Positions 3,801-49,522 of a DNA stretch of 64,000 bases are shown piece by piece; within the stretch, counting starts at the first letter, position 1; every line of letters starts with the position of its first letter. The position numbers were made by a program, and so were the translations under genes. The notes beneath the pieces were generated by a model. That model saw only the letters and a program-made list of their open reading frames with translations, did not search any database and was not told the origin of the DNA. The stretch comes from a virus (taxonomy: Duplodnaviria; Caudoviricetes): positions 3,050-67,049 of the IMG/VR virus record IMGVR_UViG_3300015050_001236; one strand, written 5' to 3'.

Positions 3801-4066
3801 GACCGCCTGCAACCCCAAAGGAACCGAACCAAATGAGCTTTTACAAAGAATACCGCGACGCCTTCAACGCCGCTTGCGACCTTGCCCGCACCCGCCAGCG
3901 TGAGATGGGGCTGGAACGCGTCGACGGCCCGCTGGAAAAGGGTTTCCGCGTCATCAGTCTGCCCAAGCCTGAAAACCGTTACGGCCACGAATTGCGTTGC
4001 CAAGTCGTGAGTCCGACCGATCCCCGCATGGCCTGACCCGACCGCCTGCAACTCCAAAGGAACCGA
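3801..4066 (+). repeat. 27-bp direct repeat (GACCGCCTGCAACYCCAAAGGAACCGA) at 3801-3827 and 4040-4066 flanking one gene
   Basis: One mismatch between copies. Confidence 0.8.
3833..4036 (+). CDS. Early hypothetical protein
   Basis: Start motif upstream; 67 aa. Confidence 0.75.
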   Translation: MSFYKEYRDAFNAACDLARTRQREMGLERVDGPLEKGFRVISLPKPENRYGHELRCQVVSPTDPRMA

Positions 4067-4074
4067 GGAACCAA

Positions 4075-4479
4075 ATGATCTCCGCTGAAACCTATGCCGT
4101 CTATCGCGCCGCTTGTGACAAGGCTGAGGCCTACCGCCAAGCTAACGCTACCTTCAGCCGTGGTGGCTGGTCCAGCATGTCGGCGGAACTGGCTGCGCAC
4201 CCCGACTATGCCGGGTGCACTAACGACATGCGCGGCGCCATCGAAGAATATGAACTCAACCGCGACCAGCCCGACGCTTTCTCGGCCTACATCACCGACA
4301 AGGGCCTGACCCTCTGGACTGGCGTGCCGATCGGCAAGGTCACCGGGTGCGGCACATGGCGCCGTAACAACTTCGGCGGCAAGTGGCGCGCTGTTAACGT
4401 TCGCGCGGCATGGGGTCAGGCGTATTACGGCCGCGAATACGACTCCCGTCAGTTGGTCAACCTCCGCCGTGTCGCCTGA
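4075..4479 (+). CDS. Early hypothetical protein
   Basis: ATG 4075 after AAAGGAACCGAGGAACC; 134 aa. Confidence 0.75.
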   Translation: MISAETYAVYRAACDKAEAYRQANATFSRGGWSSMSAELAAHPDYAGCTNDMRGAIEEYELNRDQPDAFSAYITDKGLTLWTGVPIGKVTGCGTWRRNNFGGKWRAVNVRAAWGQAYYGREYDSRQLVNLRRVA

Positions 4480-4522: not shown

Positions 4523-4570
4523 TTAGCAAGCGGCGAATCCCTCGCGCTTGAACCGGAAGGAACCTGAACC

Positions 4571-4960
4571 ATGCCACGTAAAACCCCTGAAAGCGTTCTC
4601 ACTCTTGTCCGCGCTGACTTCGGCGTAGCGGACGCCTACGCCCTGCGCCGTATCGCCATGCAGCTGCACCGCTGGCATGAGCTCGAATGCGGCGTCGAAA
4701 ATGGTGGCGTCGAGCGCGATGAGACCACGGGCAAATGCTACTGGTATTCGTCGCACTCCGGCCGGCGCACGCCAACCGCAGACCGCGAGACCGGTGCCCT
4801 GAAGCGCCTGGCGTCGATCATGGCGCGCTATCCGCACCTCAGCCACTACGTGCAGGGCGATCCGCGCGGCGCCGCGCTGTATATCCTCCGGCCGGGCGAC
4901 GTTCCGCCGGGCGCTGACGCTGACGCCTATTACTCGCGAGGGCTTGCCGTCTACCAGTGA
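4571..4960 (+). CDS. Early hypothetical protein (QGDPRG.ALY motif)
   Basis: Start motif; 129 aa. Confidence 0.8.
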   Translation: MPRKTPESVLTLVRADFGVADAYALRRIAMQLHRWHELECGVENGGVERDETTGKCYWYSSHSGRRTPTADRETGALKRLASIMARYPHLSHYVQGDPRGAALYILRPGDVPPGADADAYYSRGLAVYQ

Positions 4961-4994: not shown

Positions 4995-5056
4995 GGCCAA
5001 GGCTCGATACCGCCGCTTTGGAACCCGCTGAACCCTCTCTGAAAGGAACCTGAACC

Positions 5057-5548
5057 ATGCCTTTGACCGAACGCCGCAAAGCCGATCGTGCCCAGATGGC
5101 GCAAGCCGTCATCGCGCTCGCGACCGAGCTGGGCGCCACTGCCCGGCTCGAGCCTGAAGGCGAGTCGCTATCGCCCCATGAGGTGAACGTGCACATCCGC
5201 GCCGCTCGCGGCTTGTGCGTCACTGCCTCATTCGACGGGCAATCCCCTCAGCCTGACGTGCACGTCATCAGCTGGCACATGGCGAGCGACGTCGACACCT
5301 GCCTGGCTGACACCTTCACCCGTGCCGGAGAGCCGAACCGCTACCACTTCCGCAAGGCAACAGCCGTCGCCTATGGCTTCGATAACCTGTTGCATGTGCT
5401 GCGCACCGGACTTGAGCTCGCCGCGTCAGGTGAAGCCTTCAGCGCCGAACGGGAAGCCGCCGCCATAGCCAAGGCGGGCGAAACCGCCGCCGAGCGCAAT
5501 GCCCGATACGACGCATGGCGTTCCGCGCCCGTGGCAGGCCAGCCATGA
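5057..5548 (+). CDS. Early hypothetical protein
   Basis: GAAAGGAACCTGAACCATG start; 163 aa. Confidence 0.8.
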   Translation: MPLTERRKADRAQMAQAVIALATELGATARLEPEGESLSPHEVNVHIRAARGLCVTASFDGQSPQPDVHVISWHMASDVDTCLADTFTRAGEPNRYHFRKATAVAYGFDNLLHVLRTGLELAASGEAFSAEREAAAIAKAGETAAERNARYDAWRSAPVAGQP

Positions 5549-5754: not shown

Positions 5755-5780
5755 ACGGACCACGAAAGGAACCCTGAACC

Positions 5781-6032
5781 ATGCCTGCCCTGCATTCCGA
5801 ACCAACCACGACCGCCGGCCTCTTGATGTCCCTCTGCGCCAGCCTGCCAGATCCCCGTTGCCCGATCGCGCGCCGCGCCGCTCGCGTTGCCGCTCGGCTA
5901 AGTGAAGGAGCTTCGACCCGAGCCGATCGTCGCGATGCGGCCGACCTGCTCGCCTCGCTGCTCTCGATGGCCGACGCCGGCCTGGCTATGGACGCCGATG
6001 GCCTGCTCTCGTCCGACTTCGACGATGAGTGA
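5781..6032 (+). CDS. Hypothetical protein
   Basis: Start motif; 83 aa. Confidence 0.65.
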   Translation: MPALHSEPTTTAGLLMSLCASLPDPRCPIARRAARVAARLSEGASTRADRRDAADLLASLLSMADAGLAMDADGLLSSDFDDE

Positions 6033-7453: not shown

Positions 7454-7491
7454 ACCAGCACGACCCCCGAACGAAAGGAACCAGAACCCAA

Positions 7492-8040
7492 ATGCCCTCC
7501 TCCTACCGAGACAACCCCGACCCGGGCTTCCGAGGCTCGGCCGCCGATTACAGAGCCCGCCTCGAGCCCGCCGTGGCCGCTACCGAGCCAGCGCCAGCGC
7601 CCGCCTATCGCAGCGTTGAAGCTGAGGCCATGTTCAGCATCGCCATCTCCCTCAAGCGCATCGCGGACAGCCTCGCCCAGCTGACGTCCGCCACGCCGAC
7701 GCTGATGTCCGCGCTCGACATCAACGGCCCGGCCGCCGCGTCGGCAGCCATCAAGGCCGCCACCGCGCAGCCGCCCGACGTCAACAGCAGCACGCACTCC
7801 GCGCGCAGCGCCGGCTACGGCGGACCAGCGGAGTTTACCGGGCACGCGCCGCGGACCGACGACAACCCGTGGATCGACTGGCCCAGCGGCGAATGCCCGG
7901 TGCCCGACGGGACGCGTGTCGAGGTCCGCTGGAACGACATCCACGGGCAGCGATGCCACCAGACGATTATCGCCGATGACGTCGTTCGTTTTGCGGGTCG
8001 TAAGTCCGCCAGCAACATCCAGTACCGAGTGACCAAATGA
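7492..8040 (+). CDS. Hypothetical protein (C-terminal W..W.G.ECPVP.GT.V.V.W module)
   Basis: Start motif CGAAAGGAACC; 182 aa. Confidence 0.7.
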   Translation: MPSSYRDNPDPGFRGSAADYRARLEPAVAATEPAPAPAYRSVEAEAMFSIAISLKRIADSLAQLTSATPTLMSALDINGPAAASAAIKAATAQPPDVNSSTHSARSAGYGGPAEFTGHAPRTDDNPWIDWPSGECPVPDGTRVEVRWNDIHGQRCHQTIIADDVVRFAGRKSASNIQYRVTK

Positions 8041-11090: not shown

Positions 11091-11305
11091 CCACCGACCC
11101 CTGGCAGCCCCTCCCGGACACGACCCCGCTCAGCCTCGCGCAGACCACCGACCACACCTGCAAGTGGCCGCTCGGCGAGACCACGCCCTGGACCTTCTGT
11201 GGCCAGCCCGCCACCGAGGGCAAGCCCTACTGCCCGGCGCATTGCCGCATCGCCTACCGCCCGATCGACCTGTCGATCAAGCTGCGCCCGCCGAAGGGCG
11301 CCTGA
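11087..11305 (+). CDS. gcrA: GcrA C-terminal (sigma70-interacting) domain-only protein
   Basis: CKWPLGETTPWTFCGQPATEGKPYCPAHCRIAY matches GcrA CKWPIGD...F.FCG....G.PYC..H..VAY. Confidence 0.8.
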   Translation: MTTDPWQPLPDTTPLSLAQTTDHTCKWPLGETTPWTFCGQPATEGKPYCPAHCRIAYRPIDLSIKLRPPKGA

Positions 11306-11319
11306 AAGGAACCAGAGCC

Positions 11320-11604
11320 ATGATCAAATCCGAAATTGGCGTGCTCAACGGCGTCAAGATCATCGAGAGTCTGCACGCCACTAAAACCGTGGAGGATTGG
11401 TCGCGTGTCCGGTCGCCGAGTCGAGCCGCCCGGCGACTGAAGCGCGGTTTCCGCCAGAACATCGTCAGGCGCGAAGAGCCGGCGGCGTTCCAGATCGGCA
11501 CCCAGATGATCGTACATCCGGCCATCCTTTCGGAGATCAGACGCGTCATGGCCAGCCGCATTGATGGCGAAATTATGCGCGCGATGTACGCCGGCATCCG
11601 CTGA
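11320..11604 (+). CDS. Hypothetical protein (DWSRVRSPSRA.RR motif)
   Basis: GAAAGGAACC start motif; ATG 11320. Confidence 0.7.
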   Translation: MIKSEIGVLNGVKIIESLHATKTVEDWSRVRSPSRAARRLKRGFRQNIVRREEPAAFQIGTQMIVHPAILSEIRRVMASRIDGEIMRAMYAGIR

Positions 11605-12250: not shown

Positions 12251-13192
12251 ATGACCAAACTGCACGAGATGCTCGCCGTCATTGCCCGGCAACGCCACGA
12301 CACAATAACCGAAGCCCTGGACAGTCCGTATACGCTGGCGTCGCTGACCGACGCGCAGCTCGTCAAGGTCCAGGCATTCATCACGTCGTTCTACGCCGAC
12401 CCGATCACCGGGGCGCTGCCCGAGAAAGGAACCAGAACCATGCCCACCAGGAAAGAACGCCTCGCCGCGCTCGAGATCGCGCAGCAACTCAACCAGGAAC
12501 GCATCGCCGACCTGATCGTCACGGTCGGCAAGCTGACGACCGGCGTCGAGCGCCTGACCGACACGATCCTGCGGACGCAGGGCGTCGTCGACAAATGGGC
12601 CGACCACGTCATCGCCAAGGATTCGCTGCTCGCCGAGATGTCGCAGCGGGTCGACCACGCCGAGCGCAAGCTCAACGAGCTCACGACAGCCTTCGCCCTG
12701 CACAACAACGCCGTGGTCGACGGCCAGGCCATCCTCGGGCGCGAGCAGGCGGCGCTCGCCGCGCGGCTCGACAAGCTCGAGCGTCTGAGCGAACCGCAAG
12801 TACCGCAGCCGTTCGTCTGGCCGCACTGGCCCACCGGCGAATGGCGTGAAGGCGATCCGCCCCCGCAGACGACGCCCTTCCCCGCCGGCGCTGCCACGAC
12901 CGTCGACGAGGTCCTCGCTGCCGTGCCGCCCGCCGACGACGGCCCGCCACGGCGCGGCGATCGCGTTCGGCTGGAAGGGGCGCTATCGACCGGCGGCTTT
13001 TCGATCCTGAACGGGTGGTACGACGTGGTCGGGTTCAGCCGAGAGTCGCCTATCTTCCAGGTGACGTCTGACGGGCGCGCGTTGTTCTGGCTCTACAACG
13101 ACGCGGCAGGGGTCAAGGAAATCCGCCGCAGCACCGCCCAACCCCAGCGCCCGGCCATCGAGCCGGTCGACGACAAGGACATCGACGTATGA
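12251..13192 (+). CDS. Coiled-coil hypothetical protein with a second in-frame start at 12440
   Basis: Start motifs at 12233 and 12424 in the same frame with no stop between. Confidence 0.65.
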   Translation: MTKLHEMLAVIARQRHDTITEALDSPYTLASLTDAQLVKVQAFITSFYADPITGALPEKGTRTMPTRKERLAALEIAQQLNQERIADLIVTVGKLTTGVERLTDTILRTQGVVDKWADHVIAKDSLLAEMSQRVDHAERKLNELTTAFALHNNAVVDGQAILGREQAALAARLDKLERLSEPQVPQPFVWPHWPTGEWREGDPPPQTTPFPAGAATTVDEVLAAVPPADDGPPRRGDRVRLEGALSTGGFSILNGWYDVVGFSRESPIFQVTSDGRALFWLYNDAAGVKEIRRSTAQPQRPAIEPVDDKDIDV

Positions 13193-13482
13193 AGCTCTGG
13201 GGCGATATGACGGCCCTCGAGCAGGCCAAGGCCGCCGTCTACCTGGTGCGCGAGCGCGGCATGACTTACACGCAGGCGGCTGAGCAGCTGGTCGCCAGCA
13301 AGGGTGCCATCGCCGGAGCGCTTCACCGCGCCCCGGTGACGCTCAAGCGCTCGGAGGCCCAGAAGCGCCAGCAGAAGGCAGGCGACACCAAGTCGCGCTG
13401 GACCGAGAACCGCCTCACCGAGTCGTGGGCGGTCTGGCGCGAACGGCGGCGCGCCGAGCGGCAGCGGGAAATGACGGAGTGA
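13189..13482 (+). CDS. HTH protein resembling the GcrA N-terminal DNA-binding domain
   Basis: GMTYTQAAEQLVASKGAIAGALHR vs GcrA GLSASQIAKQLGGVTRNAVIGKVHR. Confidence 0.55.
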   Translation: MKLWGDMTALEQAKAAVYLVRERGMTYTQAAEQLVASKGAIAGALHRAPVTLKRSEAQKRQQKAGDTKSRWTENRLTESWAVWRERRRAERQREMTE

Positions 13483-13520
13483 AAAAACAGAAGGCCGCCC
13501 CGGGGAGAGGCGGCCTTCTG
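13482..13520 (-). terminator. Rho-independent terminator, minus strand
   Basis: 12-bp stem CAGAAGGCCGCC/GGCGGCCTTCTG followed by U6 on the minus strand. Confidence 0.85.
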
Positions 13521-13575
13521 CCGAAAGGAACCGAATCCGTTACGACTCGATGCGCCGGAGAACCACTTCCAGCAG
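13482..13575 (-). ncRNA. Candidate ~90-nt trans-acting antisense sRNA
   Basis: Own promoter and terminator; two hairpins; unpaired GUUCCUUUCGG complementary to the phage start-associated motif. Confidence 0.65.
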
Positions 13576-13579
13576 TTGC

Positions 13580-13608
13580 AATATGCTACTTCATTCAGAG
13601 CCTGTCAA
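13580..13608 (-). promoter_or_regulatory. sigma70 promoter TTGACA-N17-CATATT
   Basis: Near-consensus, 17-nt spacer; -35 overlaps the stop codon of the upstream gene. Confidence 0.75.
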
Positions 13609-14414
13609 TTGGCCCGAGCACCCGCCGCGCGCCGGCGCGGCGCTTCGGCCCGCCGCGGATTGACACCCCCGGTGATCTGGCCGCGGCGCTTGGTCACCAT
13701 GTCGAGCAGCCGCTGCTTGTCGGCGATCTCGCCCAGGTCCTTGATGAACGTCATCATATCGGGGTTCTTGCGCGGCAGGGCGTCGACCTGCTCGGTCGAG
13801 GTAGCCTCGGCGAGGAAGGTCTCGATCTCGCCCATCACCGCCTCGATCAGGTCGGCGGCCTTCTCGCCCGAGTCGTAGAGGTCGATAAAGATAGGCAGGC
13901 CGTCGGCTTCGCGCCGGGCGATGACGTTCAGGGCGGGCTCGTCCTCGGGCTCCTCGACGTACTCCTGCTCGGGTTCGTCGGTCGAACTGCGCCACTCGGG
14001 CTCGAGCGTGTCGTCGTGACCGTTCATCGGGCCGCCCTGCTGCAGATCCGGGCGGGCCGGCGCCTCGGCCGCCTGCTGCACCTGCGGCGGCAGCCGCCCG
14101 AACAGCATGAACACCAGCGCCACCTCGGCCTGCAGCCGCGCCGACAGGCTGACATGCGGTAGGCCCTGCGCGATGCGCGTCGTCAGGCCGTCGAGGCGTT
14201 CCATGGCGTCGGGCGACGGCCCGACCATGACGTCGAAATGCACGAGCACCGAGGCGTCGGGCGTTGCCACGGCGCTGACTTCCTTCAGGTAGCAGTGGTG
14301 CCCGGCCTCGCGCATGTCGGCCAGCAGGCGCTCATAGGGCGGCGCGTCGGGCGCACTGCCGATCTGCTTGAGGTAGGCGATGACGTCGGGGATGACTTGG
14401 GTCTTGACGGCCAT
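13605..14414 (-). CDS. Hypothetical protein (269 aa)
   Basis: ATG 14414 with AAGGAGG RBS; typical codon usage. Confidence 0.75.
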   Translation of the reverse strand: MAVKTQVIPDVIAYLKQIGSAPDAPPYERLLADMREAGHHCYLKEVSAVATPDASVLVHFDVMVGPSPDAMERLDGLTTRIAQGLPHVSLSARLQAEVALVFMLFGRLPPQVQQAAEAPARPDLQQGGPMNGHDDTLEPEWRSSTDEPEQEYVEEPEDEPALNVIARREADGLPIFIDLYDSGEKAADLIEAVMGEIETFLAEATSTEQVDALPRKNPDMMTFIKDLGEIADKQRLLDMVTKRRGQITGGVNPRRAEAPRRRAAGARAN

Positions 14415-14433
14415 GTCGGCTGTCCTCCTTGGG

Positions 14434-14643
14434 TTAAAGGTCTTTCCACGGGTCGAGCTTCGCGACCTTCGCTGCCTGGTCGGCATGCATCGATTCCTCG
14501 AGCTTGTTGACGAGCTTCTCGGCGGGGCCTTTCGGCACGCCGTTCTTCCGCCAGCGCCACAGCGTGACGACGCTGATGCCAAGCGACCGGGCGAACTGCT
14601 CGTGTGTCATTCGACGCCAGTGGCGCAACTCTTCCAGATCCAT
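14434..14643 (-). CDS. Cro/XRE-type HTH regulator
   Basis: LEELRHWRRMTHEQFARSLGISVVTLWRWRKNG. Confidence 0.8.
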   Translation of the reverse strand: MDLEELRHWRRMTHEQFARSLGISVVTLWRWRKNGVPKGPAEKLVNKLEESMHADQAAKVAKLDPWKDL

Positions 14644-14666
14644 GCGCCGCTGTCTAGCATGGCGAA

Positions 14667-14722
14667 TTGCACCGTGCAACGAAGGATTGCATCTTGACAT
14701 AGAAATCGACGCGGCGTATAAG
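14667..14722 (+). promoter_or_regulatory. sigma70 promoter TTGACA-N17-TATAAG (14694-14722) with upstream inverted repeat TTGCAC-C-GTGCAA (14667-14679)
   Basis: Directly visible; divergent from the HTH gene. Confidence 0.8.
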
Positions 14723-14724
14723 CA

Positions 14725-15175
14725 CCGGCATCAACTCAGGAGAAGGGACCTTTCCCGGGCGAGCTACGGCGTCCGACTAAGCCAGAGACAGACGATCGGG
14801 CCTTCTCCGCGCCGGCATGACGAGGCTGCTTCCCTCGGGCGTACATAGCACCCGCAAATCGTTTGATCCGTAGCAACAAAATTCGCTGGCGCTGCAAGAG
14901 CAACAGCAGCGAGCGGAGGGCGTGGTTGAAAGTAGGCCGCCCAGCTCAGGTTGTCTGATGGAAATACACCTTGCCGGAAAAACCACGATACCCGGCATAA
15001 ATCAGACGCTCTTCAAGAACTTCCGACGACCCGAAAGACGCGCAGAAACCAGTAACCCGCCCCCGATCTGGCAAGCGCATCGACAAGGGTCCGGAGGCCA
15101 AGGCGCCGGGAGGAACGGGCTGCACCCTTCCCTCCTCCCCCAGGTCCGGTCCACCCGGCGCTGACGTTTTCTCTT
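14725..15175 (+). ncRNA. Candidate ~450-nt structured RNA or leader
   Basis: No credible ORF; many nested stems; CCUCCUCCC motif; U-rich run after the last stem. Confidence 0.5.
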
Positions 15176-15193
15176 CGAAAGGAACCCAGAACC

Positions 15194-15379
15194 ATGTCAC
15201 GCCACGAAGCGATCTGGAGCGACGGCAAGACGACCGTCCAAGGGACGTGGGAGTACTACCGTCCGTCCGACAAATTCATTATCTGGCTCGACTCCAAGGA
15301 CCCGGTCACCGGCAGGCAGCGGGTCGTGGAAACGCACGGCGACGTCCCGGAATGGGGAAAATGGAAGCGCGTACCATGA
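15194..15379 (+). CDS. Small Trp-rich hypothetical protein
   Basis: CGAAAGGAACC start motif. Confidence 0.75.
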   Translation: MSRHEAIWSDGKTTVQGTWEYYRPSDKFIIWLDSKDPVTGRQRVVETHGDVPEWGKWKRVP

Positions 15380-15513
15380 CCCTCCTCGAGCGCCTCGACA
15401 TCCTCCGCGTCAAGCTCGTCCAGTCGCTGCGCTACGAACAGCCGCGCGCCTGGGTGAACGTCGACGTGTGGGCTCCCAGCGGCCGGCGCGCCGTGCAGAT
15501 CTTTTTCGACTAG
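15376..15513 (+). CDS. Small hypothetical protein
   Basis: ATGA overlap; 45 aa. Confidence 0.55.
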   Translation: MTLLERLDILRVKLVQSLRYEQPRAWVNVDVWAPSGRRAVQIFFD

Positions 15514-19643: not shown

Positions 19644-19727
19644 TCTGTGCCTCCAAGAATATGGACTGTTGACTAGCATGGATCGCTATGATAGGTCAAT
19701 GCTTATCGAACCGAGGACCCCCAAGTA

Positions 19728-19940
19728 ATGCCCCTCTACGATCTCGACAAAGGCGACAAGATCGACATCCACATCACGCTCTACGCTTCCGAGCGCGATA
19801 TCCTCGATGCCCTGTGCCTCAAGTTCAACTGCTCCCGTGCCGCCGTGATCGGCGTGCTGCTCGACGACGCCGCCGACATCGACCTCGCCGGCCGCGTCCC
19901 TGAACCCATCAAGCCCGGCGTCCGGCCGCGGCGCGCCTGA
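19728..19940 (+). CDS. Possible ribbon-helix-helix regulator
   Basis: IHITLYASERDILDALCLKFNCSRAAVI. Confidence 0.5.
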   Translation: MPLYDLDKGDKIDIHITLYASERDILDALCLKFNCSRAAVIGVLLDDAADIDLAGRVPEPIKPGVRPRRA

Positions 19941-19953
19941 AAGGAACCAGACC

Positions 19954-20394
19954 ATGACCGACGACATGCTCAAGCAGAACCTCGCCCTGCCGACCTGGGA
20001 CCCGCTGCTCGGCTACACCGTGACGCTCACCGAGACATGGATCAAAGTGCACGGTAGCGCGCTGAAGATCGACGACCTGCCGACCGTCATCCGCACGATC
20101 TACGGCGCGCTGCGCGCCGCTGACGGCCCGGTTCCCGCTGTGGCCTCGGCCGTGCCCGCCAGAGAGCCGTTGACGGCCAAGCAGATCCGCGACTCGATCA
20201 CCGACGACGCGCTGATCAGCTTCGAGGACGGCAAGCCCTACCGCTCGCTGAAGCGCCACCTCTCGGCGCGCGGGCTGACGCCGGCGCAGTACCGCGCGAA
20301 GTACGGCCTGCCGAATAGCTACAAGATGGTCGCGCCGTCGTACAGCGCCCGCCGCTCGGCGCTGGCCAAGAAAATCGGGCTCGGGAGGAAGTGA
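19954..20394 (+). CDS. mucR: MucR/Ros family regulator (xenogeneic-silencer type)
   Basis: SITDDALISFEDGKPYRSLKRHL...LTPAQYRAKYGLPNSYKMVAPSYS.RRS.LAK.IGLGR. Confidence 0.9.
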   Translation: MTDDMLKQNLALPTWDPLLGYTVTLTETWIKVHGSALKIDDLPTVIRTIYGALRAADGPVPAVASAVPAREPLTAKQIRDSITDDALISFEDGKPYRSLKRHLSARGLTPAQYRAKYGLPNSYKMVAPSYSARRSALAKKIGLGRK

Positions 20395-22974: not shown

Positions 22975-22999
22975 TCTCCTGCCTCGAAAGGAACCCACC

Positions 23000-24115
23000 A
23001 TGCCAGCCTATTACAGCGAGTTCGACAAGAATGCCGCGGCGTGGCTGCGCGAGCTGATCAAACGCGGCCTGATTGCCGATGGAGAAGTCGATGAGCGAGA
23101 CCTCTGGGACGTCACCCCGAACGACATCCGAGGCTTCACCCAGGTTCACCTCTGCGCCGGGATCGGCGTCTGGAGCTACGCCCTCCGTCGCGCCGGATGG
23201 CCTGACGACCGGCCCGTCTGGACCGCAAGTTTCCCGTGCCAGCCTTTCAGCGCGGCAGGCGCGCGAGGCGGGTTTGCTGACGAACGCCACCTCTGGCCCG
23301 CCGGCCAGCACCTCATCAGCGAGTGCCGCCCTGACGTCGTCCTTGGCGAGCAAGTATCGAGCAAGGACGGCCTCGTCTGGTTCGACCTTGTATCGACTGA
23401 CTTGGAAAGAGCGGGCTACGCCGTTGGGGCGGCTGATACCTGCTCTGCGGGCGTCGGCGCCCCGCATATCCGGCAAAGGCTATACTGGGTGGCCGACGCC
23501 AAACTGCCCGCGCAACCACGACAGCGACCTGTCGGCGGGGCGGTTGTACGCGACGAAGATGCAGCGGGACTTGCCGGAAACGGCGTGGTTGTCAGACTGG
23601 ACCGAGACACCGGTGACGCCCGGATGCTTCAAGGACACGGAACTTCTGCCGATCGCGGGCTGGGGCACCCCGAACGCCTCGGCGCCGGGCGGGACACCGG
23701 AACAGGCGCCGGCGCGCAAGGAGGGCACGGGGGCGGGCATGTCGGTGACGACGCTCGACCATCAGGTGCAGTTGTCGGGCTGGCCGACGGTGCGCGCGAC
23801 CGACGCGGAGAAGAACGTCCGGACGCTGGAGGGCAGCCTGTCGGAGATCGAGCGGAAGGGCTCGCCACAGGACTTGGCGCAGGCGGCAGCGATAGCCGGC
23901 CCGGCCCGACTAACGGCCTCTGGCGAGATGCTGACTGGCTCTTCTGCCGGGATGGAAAGTGGCGGCCAGTTGAACCCGGCACATTCCCGCTGGCTCATGG
24001 GGCTCCCGCGCGAGTGGGACGTCTGCGGGGTTACGGCAATGCAGTCAATGCCGAAGCGGCAGTCGCGTGGATCGAAAGCTATCTCGAAGCCCGCGCCGAT
24101 CTCGCTGCCGCCTGA
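23000..24115 (+). CDS. C5-cytosine DNA methyltransferase, alpha-type polypeptide lacking motif IX
   Basis: CAGIG (I), FPCQPFS (IV), GEQV (VI), RQRLYWVA (VIII), RLRGYGNAV (X). Confidence 0.85.
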
Positions 24116-30577: not shown

Positions 30578-30974
30578 GATTGTCGACAACTACCTCGCCC
30601 TGATCCTGCTGGTGCTGCTCATGTTCCTGCCCGTCTACGGGCCGCTCATGACGCAACTCGAAGGGCAACTCCTGCCCGTCACGTCCAAGGTGACGATCAT
30701 CGCCGATGAAGCGGCGCCGGGCGGGGGCCGTAACATCCGCTTCAGCTACGTCAAGCACCGGGCCTGCGAGATCGTCGGCACCTCACTGCGTATCGGCGAG
30801 CAGGAGGTTGGCTTCGAGCCGGCGGTCAACGACAACATGCCGCGCACCCGGCTGCCCGGCCAGCAGGTCTCGCGGCTATGGCACGTCAGCGCCGACGACC
30901 TGACGGGCATCGAACTGTGGTTCACGCACCGCTGCCACATCTTCTGGCTGACCTCGACGCAGGTCTTCCCTTAA
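30577..30974 (+). CDS. N-terminal TM periplasmic protein (start approximate)
   Basis: YLALILLVLLMFLPVYGP then beta-rich domain with two Cys. Confidence 0.55.
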
Positions 30975-33900
30975 GGACGGTTCGCCACTGCGCTCTTCCG
31001 GGTGAAGTAGAGCTTCGTCATCTGCGCCATCAGCCGATCCTGCGCCTCCTTGAGGCGCTTCTCGATCTCGCGCTTGCGCGGTTCCGGAATGTTCTCGTTC
31101 TCGCGCAGGTCGCGTAGCTGCTTGCGCAGGTCCTGTAGCGACTTGTCGGCGTCCTCGAAGGCATCGATCAGCTGCACCTCGACGGGCTGGCTCCTGATCT
31201 TGGCGCGCGCCGCTTCGATGTTGCCGTCCTCCTCGAACAGCTTCATCTCGGCGGCGACGGTCTTCACTTCACCGGCGACCTGGTAGTAGCGCTCGGTCGC
31301 GCCGCGGTTGCTAATCGACCCGACGACGCGCCGGGCGAACGGGATGTCGCCGATCTCGATATCGGCGAAGTCGCCCTGCAACGCCTGCGGGCCGGTCTCG
31401 GTGGCGAGCTTGGCAACGCGCTGGGTGAACTTGCCGACCGCGCCGGTGGCGTAGTCGAGCGCGTATTGCAGTACCTCGGGCGAGATATCGGCCGCGCCCT
31501 TGCGCACCTCATTGCCGCCCGTCACACTGTTCAGCCACGCCGCTGTATCCTTCGGGATATCGCCGGTGTTCGACCAGTATTTCTGGCTCTCGGGCACGGG
31601 CAGGCCGAAGCTCGGCCGCTCGGGCACGATGTCGTTGCCGGCGAAATCCTTGTTGGTGATGATGTCGACGAAGGGATCGGCGATGGTCGGCGCGATGAAG
31701 TTCCAGATGCTCTGCACCCCGCCGAGCGGGTTGAAGGCGCTGGCGAAGGTCATCACCGAATCGACAGCCGAACTCATCGGGTTGCGCACCGGCGAGCCGG
31801 AGAGCCCGGCGCTCATGTTGCGACCGAGATTGTAGAAGGCGTTGAAACCGTAGGGCATCGGGATGGCGATGTAGCCCTTGTCGATGCCGATCGACTTGAG
31901 CAGGCCGAGCGGGTCCATCAGGACAAAGTTGGTCTCGAGCACGTAGTCGGGGATGTCGTCGTAGTCGGTGACGCCGTTGTCGTCCTCGTCGCCCGAGATC
32001 GCCCGGTTGAGCAGGTCCTGCAGCACGCCCATGACCACGACCGCCGCGACGATCTTCTGCACGCGCTTGCTCTTCAGCCCGTTCATCAGCACGGCGGTGC
32101 CCTGCGTCGAGGCGTTGTAGAACAGGTACATGGCGTTCATGAAGCCCTTGAGCTCGCCGCCCTTGTTGAAGTTGATCGTCAGGTTCTTGGCGAGGTAGGC
32201 CGACTGCGGGATCGTCGCACCGGCTTCGCGCGCCGCGCGGTAGGCGCTGAGGCGGAAAGCGTTTTCGGCCACCTTGTTGTAGTCGCCGACGAACTTGCCG
32301 ACCTTGCTGATATGCTCGAACGCCTTGCGCGCCGTGACGTTCAGCCCGGTCGCGGTGACGCTGCGCCGGATGCCGCGCACCTGGGTCTCAAGGTCGTGGA
32401 TGCCGAGGAACTCGGTGGTGCCCCCTGCCTTCTGCATTTCGAGGAAGGTCTTCGCCCAGTCGCCTTCGGCGATCCCGTCGCGCAGCACCTCGCGAATGCC
32501 GGCCATTGCCTTCGGGGCGTTGCCGAGAATCTTCCGGCCCAGCTGCGGGATGTCGTATTGCTGCGCCAGGATGCCGGCCGTCTGGGCGTCGCGCGCCAGG
32601 TTGGAGATCAGGAACTCGGGGTTCCACGCGGTGTTGATCGTGGCGAGATAGCGGTTCAGCATGCCCGCCTTGTTCACCAGCCAATTGACGATGTCGTTGC
32701 TGGTCGTCACGTAGTCGGACTTGATGGCGCGTGCCAGCCGGGGATCAACGACCTTGGCGATGATCTCCTTGCCTTTGTACTTGGCCGTGACGATGTCGGG
32801 CGCCTGCCGGTAGCTCGGATCGCCGGCGGCGTGGATCATGCCGTTGGCGCCAGCGACCAGCCGCGTCGGGGCGGTCTTCAGGATCTGGCCGAAGCCCGCC
32901 TGCGGGTTCTCTTGAAGGAGCCGCAGGAAACTCAGCGCCACCTGGTTCTTTTCGGCGCGGATCACCGCCTCGGTGTTCTGCAGGAACAGGTGCCCGAGCA
33001 GGTCGCCAGCCTTGCGCGTGCGACCGGTCACCGACCGGTCCTCGCGGCCGCCAACGGAGAAGCCCTTGCCCGAGCGGGCGCGGGTCTGGTTCTCGGTCGG
33101 CTGGTCGGGGTCGAGGTCCTCTTCGGCAAAGCCGCGCAGCGGCACGTAGTGCTGGTACGGCGACTCGGTGTCGGGCGAGATCAGTCCGCCCTCGATACGT
33201 GTTGCGGTGGTGTTGGTGGTGATGCGCCGGGCCAGCGCTTCGAGCGCCATCATCTCGGGCATCTTGCCGTCGAGCGCCACCTTGTCGAGGATCGCGCTCG
33301 CCTCGGCGTCGCTCATGCCGCTCGGGCTTTCGGCCACCGCGCCGCGTGTGCGCAGGTAGGCGTTCCGCTCCGGCGCGTGGCGGGCGTAGAGGTAGTCCTC
33401 GAACTCCTTGGGCGTGATCTTGCGCGGCCCGTCATGCGCCGCCTTCAGCGCTTCGAGCAGCGGCAGCTGCAATTCCTGCTCGCGCTCCCTGATCTGCTCG
33501 AACACCTTGCCGTGGTAGAGCTGCTCCAGCATGTAGGTGTCGTTGAGGTCGGTGACGCTGCCGCCGTTCGCCTTGATCTGCTCGATCATCTCCTTGATCG
33601 ACAGCATCTTGTCCTGCATCTTGACGCGCGCGTCGAAGATGCTGGGCAGCCCGAGCACGCTGCGCTTGGACCGGCCGAGGCTGTTGATGAAGCGCCCGAC
33701 CGCGCCCTCGGTACGCTGCTGCAGGATGTTGAACACGCCGTTCGGCGGATCGCTCGGCACACGCTCGCCGAACGGGGCGTTGAGGCTGTAGCGGATGTCC
33801 GGGTTGGCGATGTCGTACTGGCCGTTGTTGTTTACCGCGGACTTGATCTGCGTCGGCTCGAAGGCGACCCAGTTCTCGCCGTCCTGAACGCCGTCGTAGC

Positions 33901-36900
33901 CTTGGCGCATCAGCGCCTGGCGCCCGCCTTCCGGACTCCCCGCTTTCATGCCGGCGAGCAGCATCGTTTCGCGATCGGCGGGGTTCTGGATCGACAGGTA
34001 CACCGGGTAGACGGTCGCGGGTTTCCCTCTGCTGCCGACGGTGCCGAACTTCTCGGCGACCTCGCGTTGCGGAGTGAAGTAGGTGCCCGCCACCTCGGAG
34101 AACTCGGTCTTGCCCTTGAACTCGGTGATGCCCGAGACCGGGCTGCCGTGGTGCATGACCAAAGGCCGTCCGTTCTCGTCGACCACTTTCGAGTCGCCGA
34201 ACCACCGGCGGAACTCTGGCGAGCCGACCGAGTAGCGCGGCCCGCGCACCGACGGGTCGAACTCCTGGAAGCCGCCATTCGGGAACGCCACGCGCACACC
34301 GTCGGGGCCTTCGAGTGCCGTGATCCGCCCGAGGCCTTCGGCGCGCTTGGGGTAGAGCACGACGGGGATCGGGCCGGCCTTGCCCATGAGGGCTCGAGCC
34401 GCGAACGTCCCGTCCGACTGCACGGCGCGGACATTGCCCGCGTAGCCATCAAGCACGAGGCTCGGGTATCCGGCGAACTTGTAGCCCGCGTCGATCGACG
34501 CGTTGTAGACCTCCTGCTCGGGGTTGGTCGCGCCGTCGGTCAGCGCGAGGAAATCGTCGGGCGACAGGTAGACCAGCGCCGCGCCGCGGTCGCCGGTGCG
34601 CGCCATCTGCAACTGGTGCTCGGCCAGTTCGCCGCCAAAATACTGGTTGCCGGGCCGGGGGTTGGTCAGCGCCGGGCTGGCCGTACCGGGCTTGCTCAGC
34701 GCCCCGCCCGGACTGCGGTTCGGATTGCCGTAGAGGCGGCCACCGGGGAGGTCGTCGGCGAACTTGGAGAACTTCGGGTTCTCTTCGAGGATGCTGATGC
34801 GGCTGTCGTCATAGATGACGTAGTTGCGCGTGCCGTCGCCGGTCGCCCGTGAAGCCCCGTCCAGATAGCTGTTGCCCGGTATGCCTGCTTGGGCCAGCGC
34901 CCGTGACGCGGCTTTGTTGCCGCTGAAGTCGCTTGAGTCAGACGCAGTGTCGACGACATCCCACCCGTACGCTGCCGTCTTTTTCTTCCGCAGTTTTGCT
35001 GACAGCGTGTCGTAGACATCGCGTCCCGACATGTCGTCGATGATGTCGGTGCCTAGAAGGTCGGCCACCTTGTCTCTGATTGCCCGCGTGTGCTCGCGCA
35101 TTGGTTTGTCAAAGTCGAGCAGTTCGTTGTCCTCGGGGATGTCGACCTTGTAGAGGTTGCCTTCGTTGACGTGCAGCTTGATGTTCGGATGCCCGTCGAG
35201 CCACTTCAGCGCAGCGACGTGCGCAGCGCGGTAGGCGTCATCGCCGTGCTTGTCGCGCGCACCGAACTCCAGTTCGTGCTTGACCCGGTCGCGCTTGCCG
35301 TCGTGCAGCGCGAACAGTTCGGCGACCATCTCCTCCGGCACCATGCTCTCGTCCGGCGGCGTCAGGATGGTACGCCCGTCCACCTCGATGCCGCCGCGCC
35401 CAGCCAGCGCCTGACGATAATGGTCGGCGACTTCCTTCTTCCCGGCGAAGTACAACCCATAGCCAAAGGCCTGCGCACCCTCGCCCGTCCCGATCTTGCT
35501 CGACGAGAACTTGTCCACCTTATGCGGCGTGCCGTGGTAGGCGACCATGAGTTGCTTGGCTGCCGCGCGCCCGGCGGCGCTGCGGGGCGAGCGCGCCGCG
35601 AGCACGCCGAGCTTGGCCGCCGCGAAGATGTCGGCTGGAATGCGATAGCCGTGGCCAGATAGGAAGTTGCCCGCGCGCGCCAGCATGTCCTTGATCTGCT
35701 GCCAGACGCGAGCAGCACCCTTCGGCGCGGGCTCGGCGTTCGTCGCCCACAAGGCGAACGCTTCGGCCTCGACCTCCGATAGCTCCATCTTGTCGATGTC
35801 GCGGTTGGTCGCGTTGTTCCTGCGCAGCATGTCGCGCATCGGGCCTTCTTCGGCCCGCAGCAGTTTCCGCTCGCTCTCGTTCAGCAGCTTCCATTGCAGT
35901 CGGTGGAAGGCCTCGTGGTAGGCGGCGCGCGGATTACCCCACTGCGTCGTCATTGCGACGACGTCAGCTGTCGGATCGTAGTAGCCCGTCGCTTCGGCGA
36001 CGTGCTTGCCCCAGCCTTCGTCGAACCGGTTGACGATGATCCGGTCGTGCCACTTGACCTTGTCGAGGCCCGAGACGCGGCGAACGATCTCCTCCAGTTC
36101 GGCCTTTTCGTCCTGCGTCAGCTGCGGCGGCAGCGTATCGACGGCACCCCAACCTGTCGGCGCTTCGTCCAGGTTGACCGCAACGTCAGCCTTCTCGGCC
36201 AGCGCCCAGCCCGGATCGGCCGCGAGCAGGTCGGGCGACAGCAGGAACGCCTTCTGCTCGGCGAACTCCTTCTGCGCCGGCGGCAGGTAGTCGACATCCG
36301 AGGCGCGCGGCACGGTGCCGTCCTTGCGCCGCAGATGCGGGCCGTAGTTGGCCCACGACCCCTGCGCCAGCGTTTCGGTGGCCAGCGCCCGCGCCGCCTC
36401 GGGCGACAGCAGCCGGGCGTGTTCGTGATAGGCGTTGTACTGGCCGCGCGGATCGTCGCGGTAGCCCGACTGGCCGTGCCCATAGATGTCGTGGACGACG
36501 CGCAGCAGGTCGTTGTGCGTCAGGTCGAGCCCGTCGACCGTCTTGACACCCGAGACGTTGTTGAGCGGATGGCCGGCGTTGTCGGCGCCCGGCCCGAACA
36601 TGTCGGCGGTCGGGCGGATCTTCAGCCGCCCGGCCAGCACGTCGTTGAGCAGGTCGGCCGGCGAGGCGTAGGGCGCGCCGTCGCCGGTCCACGCCGTGAC
36701 CTGCAGCGGGCCGAGCCCGTTCCACATGGCGCGCGTCTCGTCGATCAGCGCCCGGTAGGCCTTGGCCACGGCGTTGTTGCCCGGGTCATGCGCAGCGCGC
36801 TGCTGCGCGTCGGCGACACGCGCCAGGTAGCCGACGTCCTCGGGCAGCAGCGTCATCAGCCGGCCGCGCGAGACACCGTTCATCTCCTTGAAGCGATCGA

Positions 36901-39900
36901 CGATGGCCGCCACGGCGGGGCGGTCCATGATCGGCGCGACCTCGTAGGCCTTGCCGGGCGTGGTGCCCAGCACGGTCTTCGGGCCGGAGCGGCCATAGCG
37001 ATCTTCGCGCGCCTGGGCACGAGCCCGCAGGAACTCCCGCGACTTGACGCGCACGGCGTTCTCGTCGCCCGCCGTCTGCGCCGCCGCGACGCCCTGCTGC
37101 GCCGCCTGCATCGACCGGGTGGCACGGGCGCGCGGCTGCTGCGCACCGGGCGGGCTGAGCGCCTCCTCGACCATGCGGCCGGTCTCGATGGCCATGAACA
37201 GGTCGTCGGGCACCGAGCGGATCAGGCGCTTGAACCATTCGACGATCTGGCTGAACACCGTGCCGGGCTTGCCGACGACGTTGCGCTTGTTGGCCGCCCA
37301 GTGCCGGAACGCCTCGGCGATCGCTTCTTCCTCGATCGTGTCGGGGTTCTCGTAGCCGCGCTCGCCGGTGTAGTGGTGCTTGGCCCACTCGAAATAGGTC
37401 TGGCTGGTGCCCGGCCGCTTGGCACGGCGCGCGTAGCGCAGGATGGTGTTCCAGCCTTCGGTCTTCGGCCCGAGCACGCCAGCCTGCCGCAGCGCGTGGA
37501 TCAGTTCGTGATCCATGATCTGCGCCAGCTGGTCGACGACCTGGTCGGTCGTCATGTCGGTCGTCAGGTTGGCGGCCGACAGGCTGAGCAGCTTGTTGAA
37601 ATACATCCCCTCGATGTCGCGCCCGTCGGGCGTCTGCACCGTCGGCTTCAGCGTCACGCGCGCGCCGATCAGCGGCAGCTTGCGCTCGGAGGCCAGCTTG
37701 TTGAGCCGCTTCAGCACTTCCTCGGTGCGCCCGGCCAGGGCCTCTGGCGCGGGCGCGCGGCGTACCGGCTCGCTCTCCAGCTTGGGCGGCACCTCGACGC
37801 TCGTCTGCGTGTACTGCGCCCCGGTGTCGGGGCGGCTCATCTGGTCGGCGGCGCGGCGCATCGCCGCCTCGTCGCGCGACGAGTCGACGATCACCTGCCC
37901 GAGCAGGTTACCACTTTCGTCGTAGCGGTTCTCGAGCACGCCCCAGGCCGTCTCTTCGGCCGGCTCGATGGCGATCTCGGAACGCTTGTCAGTCTCGCCG
38001 GCGCGGATTGACGAGACGCGGCTGCGCGCTTCGGATGCCGAGCCGAAGACGCCGACGGCCTTGCCGTCCTGCCGGACGCGCACCTTGCTGACCGGAATGC
38101 GCCGGACAACGTAGTCCTTGAACGCGCCGTTCGGCACGTCGTCGGGCGTCGCCTGACGTTCCTGCCCGAGCACGTCATAGAGGCGGAAGTCGTTGGGGGA
38201 ACGCTGAACCAGTTGCCCCCGACGAACCATGGCGTCGCGCAGGGCGACGACATCCTTGGTGTTCTTCAGCCCGGTGGCGTCCTTGATTGCCTTGGCGGTG
38301 TAGCGCCCGGCGTTGCGCACGGCGTCGAGCGCCTTGCCGTACTGGTCCTCGGTGTAGGAGGGCTGGTCGGCGATCGGCACGGTGACGGGCTTGGCGTGCG
38401 CCGGCATGGTGTCGAGCACGTCCTTGAAGGCGCGCAACTGCGTCTGCGTCATCCGCATCGGATCGCGCGAACCGGTCGTGCGGTAGGCGAGCTCGCCGAA
38501 ATTGCCGTCGTCGCCGATGATGTTCTTCGCCTTGGCGGCGCGGGTGATGTCGAGCGCCGTCAGCGGATCGGTCGAGGTCGCCGGGCGGCGCGCCGAAATG
38601 ATAGCGTCGATCTGCGCCTGCGGCACCTTGGCGTTGGCCAATTCGTCGATGGTGACCGGCGCGTCGAGCGAGCGCCCGAGCTGGATCCGGCGCTGGTTGA
38701 CGCGCTGCGCCGCCGGCCCGCCGATCTCGTCAGTGCTGAACGTGCCGAGCGGCGTGATCGTTTCGCGCGCCGTCTGCAGCAGTTCCTTGGTCTCGGCCTG
38801 GCGCGAGCGCTGCAACGCGACGCGCGCCTGGTACTCAGCCTCGTCACGCTCGGCACCGGGGCTGCTGATCGTCCCGTCGGGGTTGAGAGTAGCATCGCGC
38901 GGCTTGCCATCGCGGCCGAACTGCGCCTGCAGCGGCTCGTCGGGTGCCAGCTGCGCCTGCCGCCGGTGGATCGGTGGCGGGGCGAACATCTCGGGTGAGG
39001 GCAGCGCCAGCAGCGTGTCCGGCGCGGGCAGCGCCATCTGGTTCTCGATCGGCTCGTCGGCAATGACGGCTTCCGGCGCGACAGGCGTCGCGGGCGTTGC
39101 CTCTGCCGCGGCGGCTTCCTTGCCGCCAATGCTGCGCGCGCCATGCGTGACGGCCGAGACGCCGCTACCGGCCATCGCGCCGGCGGCGCTTGCGACCTTG
39201 ATGCGGTTCAGCACTTCGTCGAGCGTCATCTGCTCGCCGACCACGCCGGCGTCGACCAGCGCCTGCAATGCTTCGGTCGCGCCTTCGGTCATACCCTCGA
39301 CCGCGCCGCCCTTGAGGATGCTGCCGAGCAGCGACTTGCCGCCCTGCGTGATGACCCGCCCGGCTATGGCTTCGGTCGCCGCCTCGGCGGCGGCGTAGAG
39401 CGCGGCGGCCGTCTGCGCCGTCTGGACGCTGCCGCCCTCGTCGCGGACCTTGCCGTACTCGCTGCCGTAGCTGCGACCGGTGAACCACGTCACCAGCGGC
39501 GCCGGGTTGCGAATGGCCACCGAGGCGATGGCGAGCGGCGCCATTTCGGCGATGCTGCCTGTCGTCGCGGCGGCGATCTCTTCCATCGAGCCTGGCGCGA
39601 CGTCGAGCGGTGTCTTGGTTTCCTGCGCGGCGGTATAGCGCAACTGCTGCGCCAGCGATTCCTTGGCCAGCGGCATGGCGAGGGTGCGCTTGATGTCCTC
39701 GGGCAGCCGTCCGCCGAGGCCCCAACCCTGTTCGGTCGCGGCAGCCGGCTGGTTCAGCAGGTCTTCGATGGGCGCGCCGGGCGTGACCTCGAGCGGGGGC
39801 GTCCGCCCCTTCTGGATCGCCGGGTCGATTTCGTATTGCAGCGCCTCGACGACGCCGCGCCCGATACCTGCCTTCGACATGGCGATGTCGGCCGGGAGGT

Positions 39901-49229: not shown

Positions 49230-49522
49230 CAGAGGTTCCTTACGATCTCGGCGGCCGCGACGTGGCCGGCCTCAATGAGGCGGTTGTACACAGTTGTATT
49301 CTGGCTGCGCTGCGCCTGCACGAAGTAGTGGTGCACCAGCACGGCCATGCGCTCCTGCTGCGCTTCGGCGGCGGCGCGCACGTCGGGCGGGATATCCGGG
49401 CTGATGTAGATCAGCTTGGGCATCAGCATGCGGGTCAGCTCGTCGGGGTTCAGCCCGCGCCCGTTGGTGACGATGGTCTCGATGACGCCCATCTGGGGGC
49501 CTGCATCCACGGAAAGACTCAT
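49229..49522 (-). CDS. Conserved hypothetical protein
   Basis: V.TTNGRG..P.EL...K.I.IS...P..VR pattern; coupled. Confidence 0.65.
   Translation of the reverse strand: MSLSVDAGPQMGVIETIVTNGRGLNPDELTRMLMPKLIYISPDIPPDVRAAAEAQQERMAVLVHHYFVQAQRSQNTTVYNRLIEAGHVAAAEIVRNL

Follow-up and report, generated by a model that had tools for sequence, protein, structure and literature searches.

We analysed a window of 64,000 nucleotides (nt) of DNA from an uncultured phage (Duplodnaviria; Caudoviricetes), which comprises bases 3050-67049 of the 67,049-bp IMG/VR record IMGVR_UViG_3300015050_001236, a genome with terminal repeats and 65% G+C. On the minus strand of this window, at positions 13608-13482, we found a unit predicted to encode a small RNA (sRNA). 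Judged from sequence, the unit belongs to a conserved and uncatalogued family of phage sRNAs, whose exposed elements mirror a short tag that the phage carries just before many of its start codons. On balance, we consider it probable that the RNA acts in trans as an anti-ribosome-binding-site sRNA that represses the tagged messages, in a manner like that of the c4 antisense RNA but directed by the tag.

The sRNA unit in the window

The unit lies between two convergent genes, gene A on the plus strand and gene B on the minus strand. Its promoter, two hairpins (H1 and H2) and terminator with six U residues were all found where a first-pass annotation of the window had placed them, and the parts are as follows.

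13603-13608, minus strand: -35 hexamer TTGACA, which holds the TGA stop codon of gene B (13607-13605)
13580-13585, minus strand: -10 hexamer CATATT, at a 17-nt spacer from the -35 hexamer
13554-13573, minus strand: hairpin H1, GCUGGA / AGUGGUUC / UCCGGC, with arms at 13573-13568 and 13559-13554 and the loop at 13567-13560
13530-13551, minus strand: hairpin H2, AUCGAGUC / GUAACG / GAUUCGGU, from the predicted fold
13522-13535, minus strand: second anti-tag element UUCGGUUCCUUUCG, the exact complement of the tag CGAAAGGAACCGAA
13482-13522, minus strand: intrinsic terminator with a 16-bp stem (13522-13486), a 5-nt loop and U6

The promoter, TTGACA-N17-CATATT, agrees with the consensus at 10 of 12 positions and is one of only two such sigma-70-like matches between positions 8000 and 20000. 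The terminator stem, earlier described as 12 bp, has 16 bp; read on the plus strand, the hairpin precedes CCGAAAGG, which has no U-tract, so that it is predicted to terminate the minus strand only. With a promoter of its own and a U-tailed Rho-independent terminator, the locus is, by prediction, an sRNA-type transcription unit. An Rfam cmscan of positions 12500-15500 on both strands (E <= 1) gave no match to any of 4227 families, including c4 (RF01695), and a tRNA scan likewise gave none.

Two elements of the predicted RNA are complementary to the tag. The first is the H1 loop AGUGGUUC, the complement of GAACCA, whose UGGU has an unpaired probability of 1.0 in the window. The second has as its unpaired core UCCUUUC (13529-13523), within the linker GGUUCCUUUCG, with an unpaired probability of 0.95. 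The whole linker GUUCCUUUCGG had been proposed to be unpaired; the minimum-energy fold bears this out for UCCUUUC, which is left as the firmly single-stranded part, and not for the remainder, since the 3' arm of H2 absorbs GAUUCGGU. The sequence of H2 is not conserved, and a middle hairpin is present in most relatives.

The start-associated tag

The proposal that the linker is the reverse complement of the tag was borne out by a copy of CGAAAGGAACCGAA on the plus strand at 13522-13535, with 0 mismatches. We then counted the tag across the window. AAGGAACC occurs 15 times against 0.89 expected, a number reached by 0 of 100 shuffles, and for the 14-mer, allowing up to 3 mismatches, we counted 16 occurrences where 5.0 were expected. 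The results showed that 14 of the 15 copies of AAGGAACC precede a start codon, 11 on the plus strand and 3 on the minus strand, the codon being ATG in 13 and GTG at 49241. On the plus strand between 3818 and 22988, 11 of 12 copies stand 5-11 nt before an ATG, mostly in the form GAAAGGAACC-n(1-3)-GAACC(A)ATG. The exception is the copy at 13525, in the sRNA locus, which has no start codon within 14 nt and is a poor ribosome-binding site (RBS), as had been noted. The tag is conserved across the whole phage group, where it takes the form (C/T)GAAAGGAACC. The tagged starts on the plus strand, each given with its open reading frame (ORF) or gene, are listed below; they include the MucR homologue, which had been named among the tagged genes.

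3815-3835, plus strand: tagged start CCAAAGGAACCGAACCAAATG, 67-aa ORF
4054-4077, plus strand: tagged start, 134-aa ORF
4554-4573, plus strand: tagged start AAGGAACCTGAACCATG, 129-aa ORF
5040-5059, plus strand: tagged start, 163-aa ORF
5763-5783, plus strand: tagged start, 83-aa ORF
7472-7494, plus strand: tagged start, 182-aa ORF
11303-11322, plus strand: tagged start, 94-aa ORF
12423-12442, plus strand: tagged start, 250-aa ORF
15176-15196, plus strand: tagged start CGAAAGGAACCCAGAACCATG, head gene (15194) of the rightward operon that diverges from the sRNA operon
19938-19956, plus strand: tagged start, MucR/Ros homologue
22985-23002, plus strand: tagged start, C5 DNA methyltransferase

AAGGAACC also precedes the start codons of two late structural genes on the minus strand (genes 49229 and 53678, with tags at 49241 and 53691). 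The tag is thus not confined to early genes, and the earlier description of a regulon of early and middle genes is not supported. An alphaproteobacterial LexA box (GTTC-N7-GTTC) was considered for the repeated GAAC/GTTC and rejected, as the spacings do not fit.

We compared the tag with the 3' tail of 16S rRNA, which we take to be ...CCUCCUUUCU as in Alphaproteobacteria. The tag shares GAAAGGA with the perfect Shine-Dalgarno (SD) sequence for this tail, and it reads GAAAGGAACC where the perfect SD reads GAAAGGAGG. Its conserved AACC does not pair with the 16S tail and pairs with GGUU of the sRNA, whose linker is complementary to the tag over 10-12 nt. The linker in turn would share UCCUUUC with the 16S tail and differ from it exactly where the tag leaves the perfect SD. 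Because the linker follows the tag where the 16S tail cannot, the sRNA could form 10-12 bp with tagged phage messages and the ribosome about 7.

The likeness to the 16S tail allows another interpretation, namely that the RNA is a general anti-SD mimic that soaks up host messages of the GAAAGGA type (host shut-off), its likeness to the tag being secondary. UCCUUUC is indeed common to the sRNA and the assumed 16S tail, and broad-regulon anti-SD sRNAs (AbcR, the cuckoo family) exist in Alphaproteobacteria. However, the conserved GGUU extension pairs with AACC of the phage tag and not with the GG of a canonical SD, and it tracks the tag in the two variant phages L022 and L014 described below. We therefore regard a general mimic as very improbable.

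Conservation of the unit in related phages

Relatives of gene B (33-94% identity) lie on phage-sized metagenomic contigs, which are designated by L numbers here. The sRNA unit was present at the same site in at least 20 related phage contigs, at the end of the leftward operon formed by a helix-turn-helix (HTH) gene and gene B, and facing the rightward early genes. It lies downstream of gene B at the convergence point in L003-L017, L019, L021, L022, L024, L025 and L027. The units share one order, consisting of the promoter, a hairpin with a UGGU loop, a variable middle hairpin, G(G)UUCCUUU(C) and the terminator, which is present in all of them. All 21 units have a promoter in the same position, 33-47 nt upstream of H1. 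The -35 hexamer of the relatives is TTGAC(A/G/C) or TTGC(C/A), followed after 16-17 nt by an A/T-rich hexamer of the TAnnnn type; the -10 hexamers include TATATA, TATAGA, TAGATA, TAAGTA, TAGCTA and GTAAAC.

In several relatives, extra ORFs lie between gene B and the unit, at least one in L004, L005, L013, L021 and L024 (one each in L004 and L005) and five in L014, where the unit (L014:5548-5675) nevertheless remains at the convergence point. Even with one to five ORFs between the unit and gene B, the promoter has been retained, which indicates a conserved and separate transcription unit. The first-pass annotation had called it self-contained; this holds for the promoter, and has to be qualified in that the -35 hexamer contains the stop codon of gene B, so that the unit is also the 3' end of the operon.

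We built a covariance model from six units of two clades. The model recovered the other clades at the expected places (L008, L006, L010, L014, L009, L016, L027, L018, L021, L024, L019, L013 and L015) and gave a single full-length match in the window, at 103 bits. When TCCTTT ahead of a strong hairpin and a T-run was searched for automatically, each locus gave exactly one site, and the minus strand of the whole genome gave one. The seed GUUCCUUU is unchanged across the first 11 units; in these GTTCCTTT is invariant while its flanks vary, and TTCCTTT is invariant in 13. The terminator loops of the relatives are of the UUCG type and others, and the further anti-SD, CUCCCC, that had been pointed out in the terminator loop of the window is not conserved and so counts for nothing. 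In L008 (10774-10806), L009 (10995-11026) and L019 (930-962), an extra GGTTCCTTTC lies in seed orientation within the spacer between the -35 and -10 hexamers; these spacer copies may be transcribed only in read-through operon mRNA, or they may be a protein-binding site.

A copy of the tag that precedes no gene could be a relic ribosome site, left by a plus-strand gene that a leftward cassette replaced, with the hairpins and promoter arising by chance. Direct tag repeats CGAAAGGAACC at 13522 and 15176 bracket the leftward module, as such a replacement would leave them, and several true tags likewise follow hairpins. Yet the motif has been retained in about 20 lineages despite divergence of the flanking intergenic sequence, and both the promoter and a covarying helix are conserved. 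A plus-strand gene starting behind the motif, which the first-pass annotation had named as the sign of a relic, was sought in the relatives: 15 of 19 distinct loci have no ATG, GTG or TTG within 2-14 nt, and the other 4 give ORFs of 6-8 aa or unconserved ORFs of 52-63 aa with GTG or TTG starts. A relic is thus extremely improbable.

The unit always sits exactly at the convergence point, and this placing would also suit a guard against convergent transcription. The RNA, as a perfect cis-antisense to read-through from gene A, would trigger cleavage, or its promoter would block the read-through transcripts, and the leftward operon would be shielded; the plus-strand hairpin followed by CCGAAAGG without a U-tract agrees with this. 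A cis-antisense RNA, however, is complementary whatever its sequence, and a guard leaves unexplained the invariant GUUCCUUU, the UGGU loop, the exposure of both elements and their identity with the complement of the tag. We consider it improbable.

We also weighed whether the unit is simply the 3' untranslated region (UTR) of the leftward operon mRNA, with the anti-tag folding back on, or pairing with, tagged sites in its own operon and acting on translation or stability. The -35 hexamer overlaps the stop codon of gene B in the window, L003, L006 and L008, tagged genes lie in the orientation of the RNA in L008, L009 and L014, and only read-through mRNA would contain the spacer copies of L008, L009 and L019. 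In addition, the 17-nt match in L022 is to a same-strand ORF just after gene B. In the window, by contrast, the leftward operon is untagged, the minus strand from 13600 to 15200 being free of AAGGAAC, and every unit keeps a promoter for which a pure 3' UTR has no need. A cis-acting 3' UTR is unlikely, and we prefer the trans-acting sRNA.

Structure of the RNA and exposure of its seeds

The covariation of H1 was assessed in a sub-alignment of nine sequences with equal loop length; whole-unit MAFFT alignments misalign H1 between clades. Units with loops of at least 7 nt (L003, L008, L009 and L015) or with a different layout (L006, L013, L019 and L025) were omitted from this count. Among the nine units, 6 of 7 pairs change on both sides. 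Pairing was present in 88.9% of cells compared with 58.5% in shuffles (0/500) and 25-46% in slid controls, and the covariation score was 0.774 compared with 0.209 in shuffles (0/500). The H1 stems are almost wholly different between clades and still paired, and the loop UGGU is invariant. By this covariation the unit is a conserved, predicted structured RNA.

Partition-function folds of 20 units gave a mean unpaired probability of 0.80 for UCCUUU and 0.77 for UGGU, compared with 0.35 for all positions. In a variant unit, L025:957-1085, GGUUCCUUUC and AGUGGUUCC occupy one hairpin loop each ahead of the terminator, in the reverse of the usual order; this argues for conservation of the sequences themselves and not of their arrangement.

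These results also bear on the idea that a phage protein, such as one of the small HTH proteins, reads the 10-bp motif as DNA or RNA, at gene starts and at the sRNA locus alike; the copies beside the terminator and in the promoter spacers would then be binding sites and not RNA seeds. The presence of GGTTCCTTTC inside the promoter spacer in L008, L009 and L019 speaks for it, and the authors who described start-associated sequences (SAS) in mycobacteriophages left a protein or an RNA reader open (PMC3203893). At genes, however, the motif is always oriented with the gene, 5-11 nt from the start, and contains an SD core, which is the behaviour of a ribosome site at the RNA level. In the RNA gene, it lies in a predicted single strand (in L025, a hairpin loop) beside a covarying helix. 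We give a protein reader little probability.

Complementarity of seeds and tags across lineages

The H1 loop UGGUUC complements the second tag box, GAACCA. Over the group, H1 loops matched tagged start regions better than shuffled loops did (4.27 compared with 3.46 +/- 0.15; maximum 3.99 of 200). The tag core is invariant in the group, and variants were informative in two lineages. The only tag in the stretch of L022 covered is GAAAGGAAACC, and both RNA elements there read GGUUUCC; the linker region of its sRNA (unit L022:4745-4864) has 17 nt of perfect complementarity with the ribosome site (L022:3247-3263) of a 21-codon ORF just after gene B. In phage L014, ten tags read GGAACC and at least one genuine tag reads GGAAACC (TGAAAGGAAACCAAATG); the RNA of this phage carries GGUUCC in the linker and GGUUUCC in H1 (GGUUUCCUUUG). 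Correspondence in these two variant lineages hints that seed and tag may co-vary.

Several observations weigh against the reading of the unit as a tag-directed repressor. The invariance of the tag core limits the covariation test to the two variant lineages, with one or two tags each. Within phages, the flanks of seed and tag do not co-vary, since own pairs scored 10.6 and cross pairs 9.7, a difference inflated by self copies, and the H1 loops have no phage-specific signal (own 4.27, cross 4.17). For the expectation that the seed would track the RBS motif in relatives, there is accordingly a hint in the L022 and L014 variants and no signal in flanks or loops. In some clades the H1 loop (GUGGUG) matches only 3 nt, so that the proposed pairing of the loop with GAACCAU is supported only in part, by the comparison with shuffled loops. 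The seed of L013 is weakened (GUCCUUUC) while its tags read GGAACC. The spacer copies of GGTTCCTTTC in three phages sit where an RNA seed has no obvious use. A duplex-energy scan of the window with the linker seed was not selective for tagged starts in this 65% GC genome: these gave -19 to -23 kcal/mol, about the top 1%, and were mixed with many other sites. The two tagged late genes fit badly with a pure early shut-off, and no RNA sequencing run containing this sequence was found.

Proposed mode of action

Conservation, structure, exposure and complementarity are what the analysis shows; from them we infer that the RNA is transcribed and pairs in vivo, as well as the direction and timing of its effect. 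The RNA gene would extend roughly from 13574 to 13483 on the minus strand, giving a transcript of about 90 nt ended by the intrinsic terminator. Its own promoter would be used by host RNA polymerase with sigma-70, and the RNA might also be released from the 3' end of the leftward HTH/gene-B mRNA. The H1 loop (A)GUGGUUC and the linker GGUUCCUUUCG would both be displayed unpaired; they are predicted to pair with the two tag boxes CGAAAGGAACC-n(1-3)-GAACC(A)AUG, and their order would fit an antiparallel two-part duplex. The sRNA most likely occupies the ribosome-binding sites of tagged messages and thereby lowers their translation. Its targets would be mostly operon-head genes of the non-structural half, such as the head of the divergent rightward operon, the MucR homologue and the C5 methyltransferase.

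Tentatively, this mechanism can be extended to the clade as a "private Shine-Dalgarno code". Operon heads would be tagged, and one sRNA that mimics the 16S tail and is extended to the tag would out-compete the ribosome on tagged messages only, which would amount to genome-wide translational control; the same logic could explain the start-associated sequences of other phages. With at least 20 members and H1 covariation, the family is large enough to suit a covariance model, and the seed/tag pair is short enough for clean compensatory-mutation tests.

A search of 185,579 prokaryote genomes with the gene B alignment found no relative of gene B, which may argue against a role in prophage immunity. 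No integrase was found in the subset of ORFs scanned, and together these two results leave an immunity or carrier-state role without support.

Setting of the locus in the phage genome

From about 3500 to 31000 the window carries non-structural genes in rightward orientation; the structural genes have the opposite orientation. Homologues of MucR, GcrA, GapR and Dam-type methylases in the window phage and its relatives point to an alphaproteobacterial host, and the samples in which the phage occurs are from fresh water. The genes around the sRNA unit are as follows.

13189-13482, plus strand: gene A, 97 aa, a weak HTH of the sigma-70 region-4 type; convergent, its stop abutting the sRNA terminator
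13605-14414, minus strand: gene B, 269 aa, no family and no informative fold; in relatives always upstream of the sRNA
14434-14700, minus strand: small HTH protein gene, which heads the leftward operon and precedes gene B; the start may be at 14643

The small HTH protein is YdaS/Cro-like in relatives. A rightward near-consensus promoter, TTGACA-N17-TATAAG, lies at 14694 and diverges from the leftward HTH/gene-B operon; its -35 hexamer overlaps the possible ATG of the HTH gene. Between this promoter and the tagged head gene at 15194 there is a leader of about 450 nt without ORFs (14694-15193). Direct repeats of CGAAAGGAACC (13522-13532 and 15176-15186) bracket the leftward module of sRNA, gene B, HTH gene and long leader, which raises the possibility that modules are exchanged by recombination at tags. 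At 19669-19699, a palindromic pair of divergent promoter-like sites (TTGACT... and TTGACC...) lies between the leftward helicase block and the rightward MucR block.

The product of gene B is a conserved protein with two predicted domains (pLDDT 75), alpha-beta3-alpha at the N terminus and a helical bundle at the C terminus. A disordered acidic linker (residues 114-159) joins them, and the tail is rich in arginine, with the consensus PRRRxAAAxRAN. Foldseek with this model gave no match at E <= 0.001, the best rows including dsRBD domains at E of about 0.1, and VIA-align gave Z values of at most 6.9, to generic helical bundles, with Mgm101 at Z 6.0 for the N-terminal domain. As gene B is a constant neighbour of the sRNA, an RNA-related role is conceivable.

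Among cultured phages, no protein matched gene A or gene B, and the sole DNA match was one of 190 bp elsewhere, to Rhizobium phages. Single-protein queries of viral contigs with gene A, gene B and the helicase gave no close relatives, and an exact DNA pattern search of viral contigs gave no match. The 3035-aa virion protein (30971-40078) matched only PHROGs families of unknown function (C-terminal 870 aa, E 1e-163); an N4-like reading of this protein was dropped, as there was no virion RNA polymerase among its PHROGs matches.

Comparison with known systems

To our knowledge, the targets of the known phage-encoded sRNAs are either a single phage message (c4, sar, OOP) or host genes (DicF, PreS, VpdS). 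Chromosomal sRNAs with anti-SD seeds include AbcR1/2 and the alpha-r14 "cuckoo" family (RF02344) in Alphaproteobacteria, and the C-rich-loop sRNAs RsaE and RNAIII in Firmicutes. Like these, the RNA proposed here has its own promoter, an intrinsic terminator and exposed pyrimidine-rich seeds suited to occluding many ribosome sites. The chromosomal sRNAs, however, have seeds similar to CCUCC or UCCC and regulons of host genes, whereas the RNA here is phage-encoded, has the seed GGUUCCUUUC and no Rfam match, and its proposed targets are the phage's own tagged genes.

The c4 antisense RNA of P1/P7 (RF01695) is a structured phage RNA with two elements that pair around an RBS and block translation (PMC12197685). 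The RNA here resembles it in its exposed structured elements and in having two complementary elements, and c4 RNA and its target also co-vary between related phages. In contrast, c4 is excised by RNase P, regulates a single message (icd/ant) from its own operon and functions in prophage immunity. The unit here comes with a promoter and terminator of its own, its potential targets number about a dozen and share the tag, and there is no sign of lysogeny in the ORFs scanned and no Rfam match.

The tag itself is similar to the SAS of Cluster K mycobacteriophages, which are confined to non-structural genes and lie 3-7 bp before the starts of many of these (Pope et al. 2011, PMC3203893). SAS have a strong ATG bias and one orientation, and combine an SD core with conserved bases unable to pair with 16S rRNA; some genomes hold a single copy on the complementary strand, and the reader was left open as "RNA or protein" (PMC3203893). 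The tag here is of the SAS type, being longer than an SD, a few nt before many starts and in one orientation, and is an analogue rather than a member; the SAS consensus is GGGATAGGAGCCC, compared with GAAAGGAACC here, and the host phylum is another. The single reversed copy here sits in a conserved, predicted small RNA gene, whereas no anti-SAS RNA is known from Cluster K. If the proposed mechanism is true, it would give a concrete answer to what reads start-associated sequences, the reader having been unknown since 2011.

Finally, the RegA protein of T4 is a repressor with loose sequence recognition that occupies the initiation regions of many phage early messages (PMC3014915). As with RegA, one phage product could turn down many phage messages, with the difference that the proposed effector is a base-pairing RNA and not a protein. 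If true, this would add a further, new level at which phage genes are controlled, by an RNA counterpart of T4 RegA.

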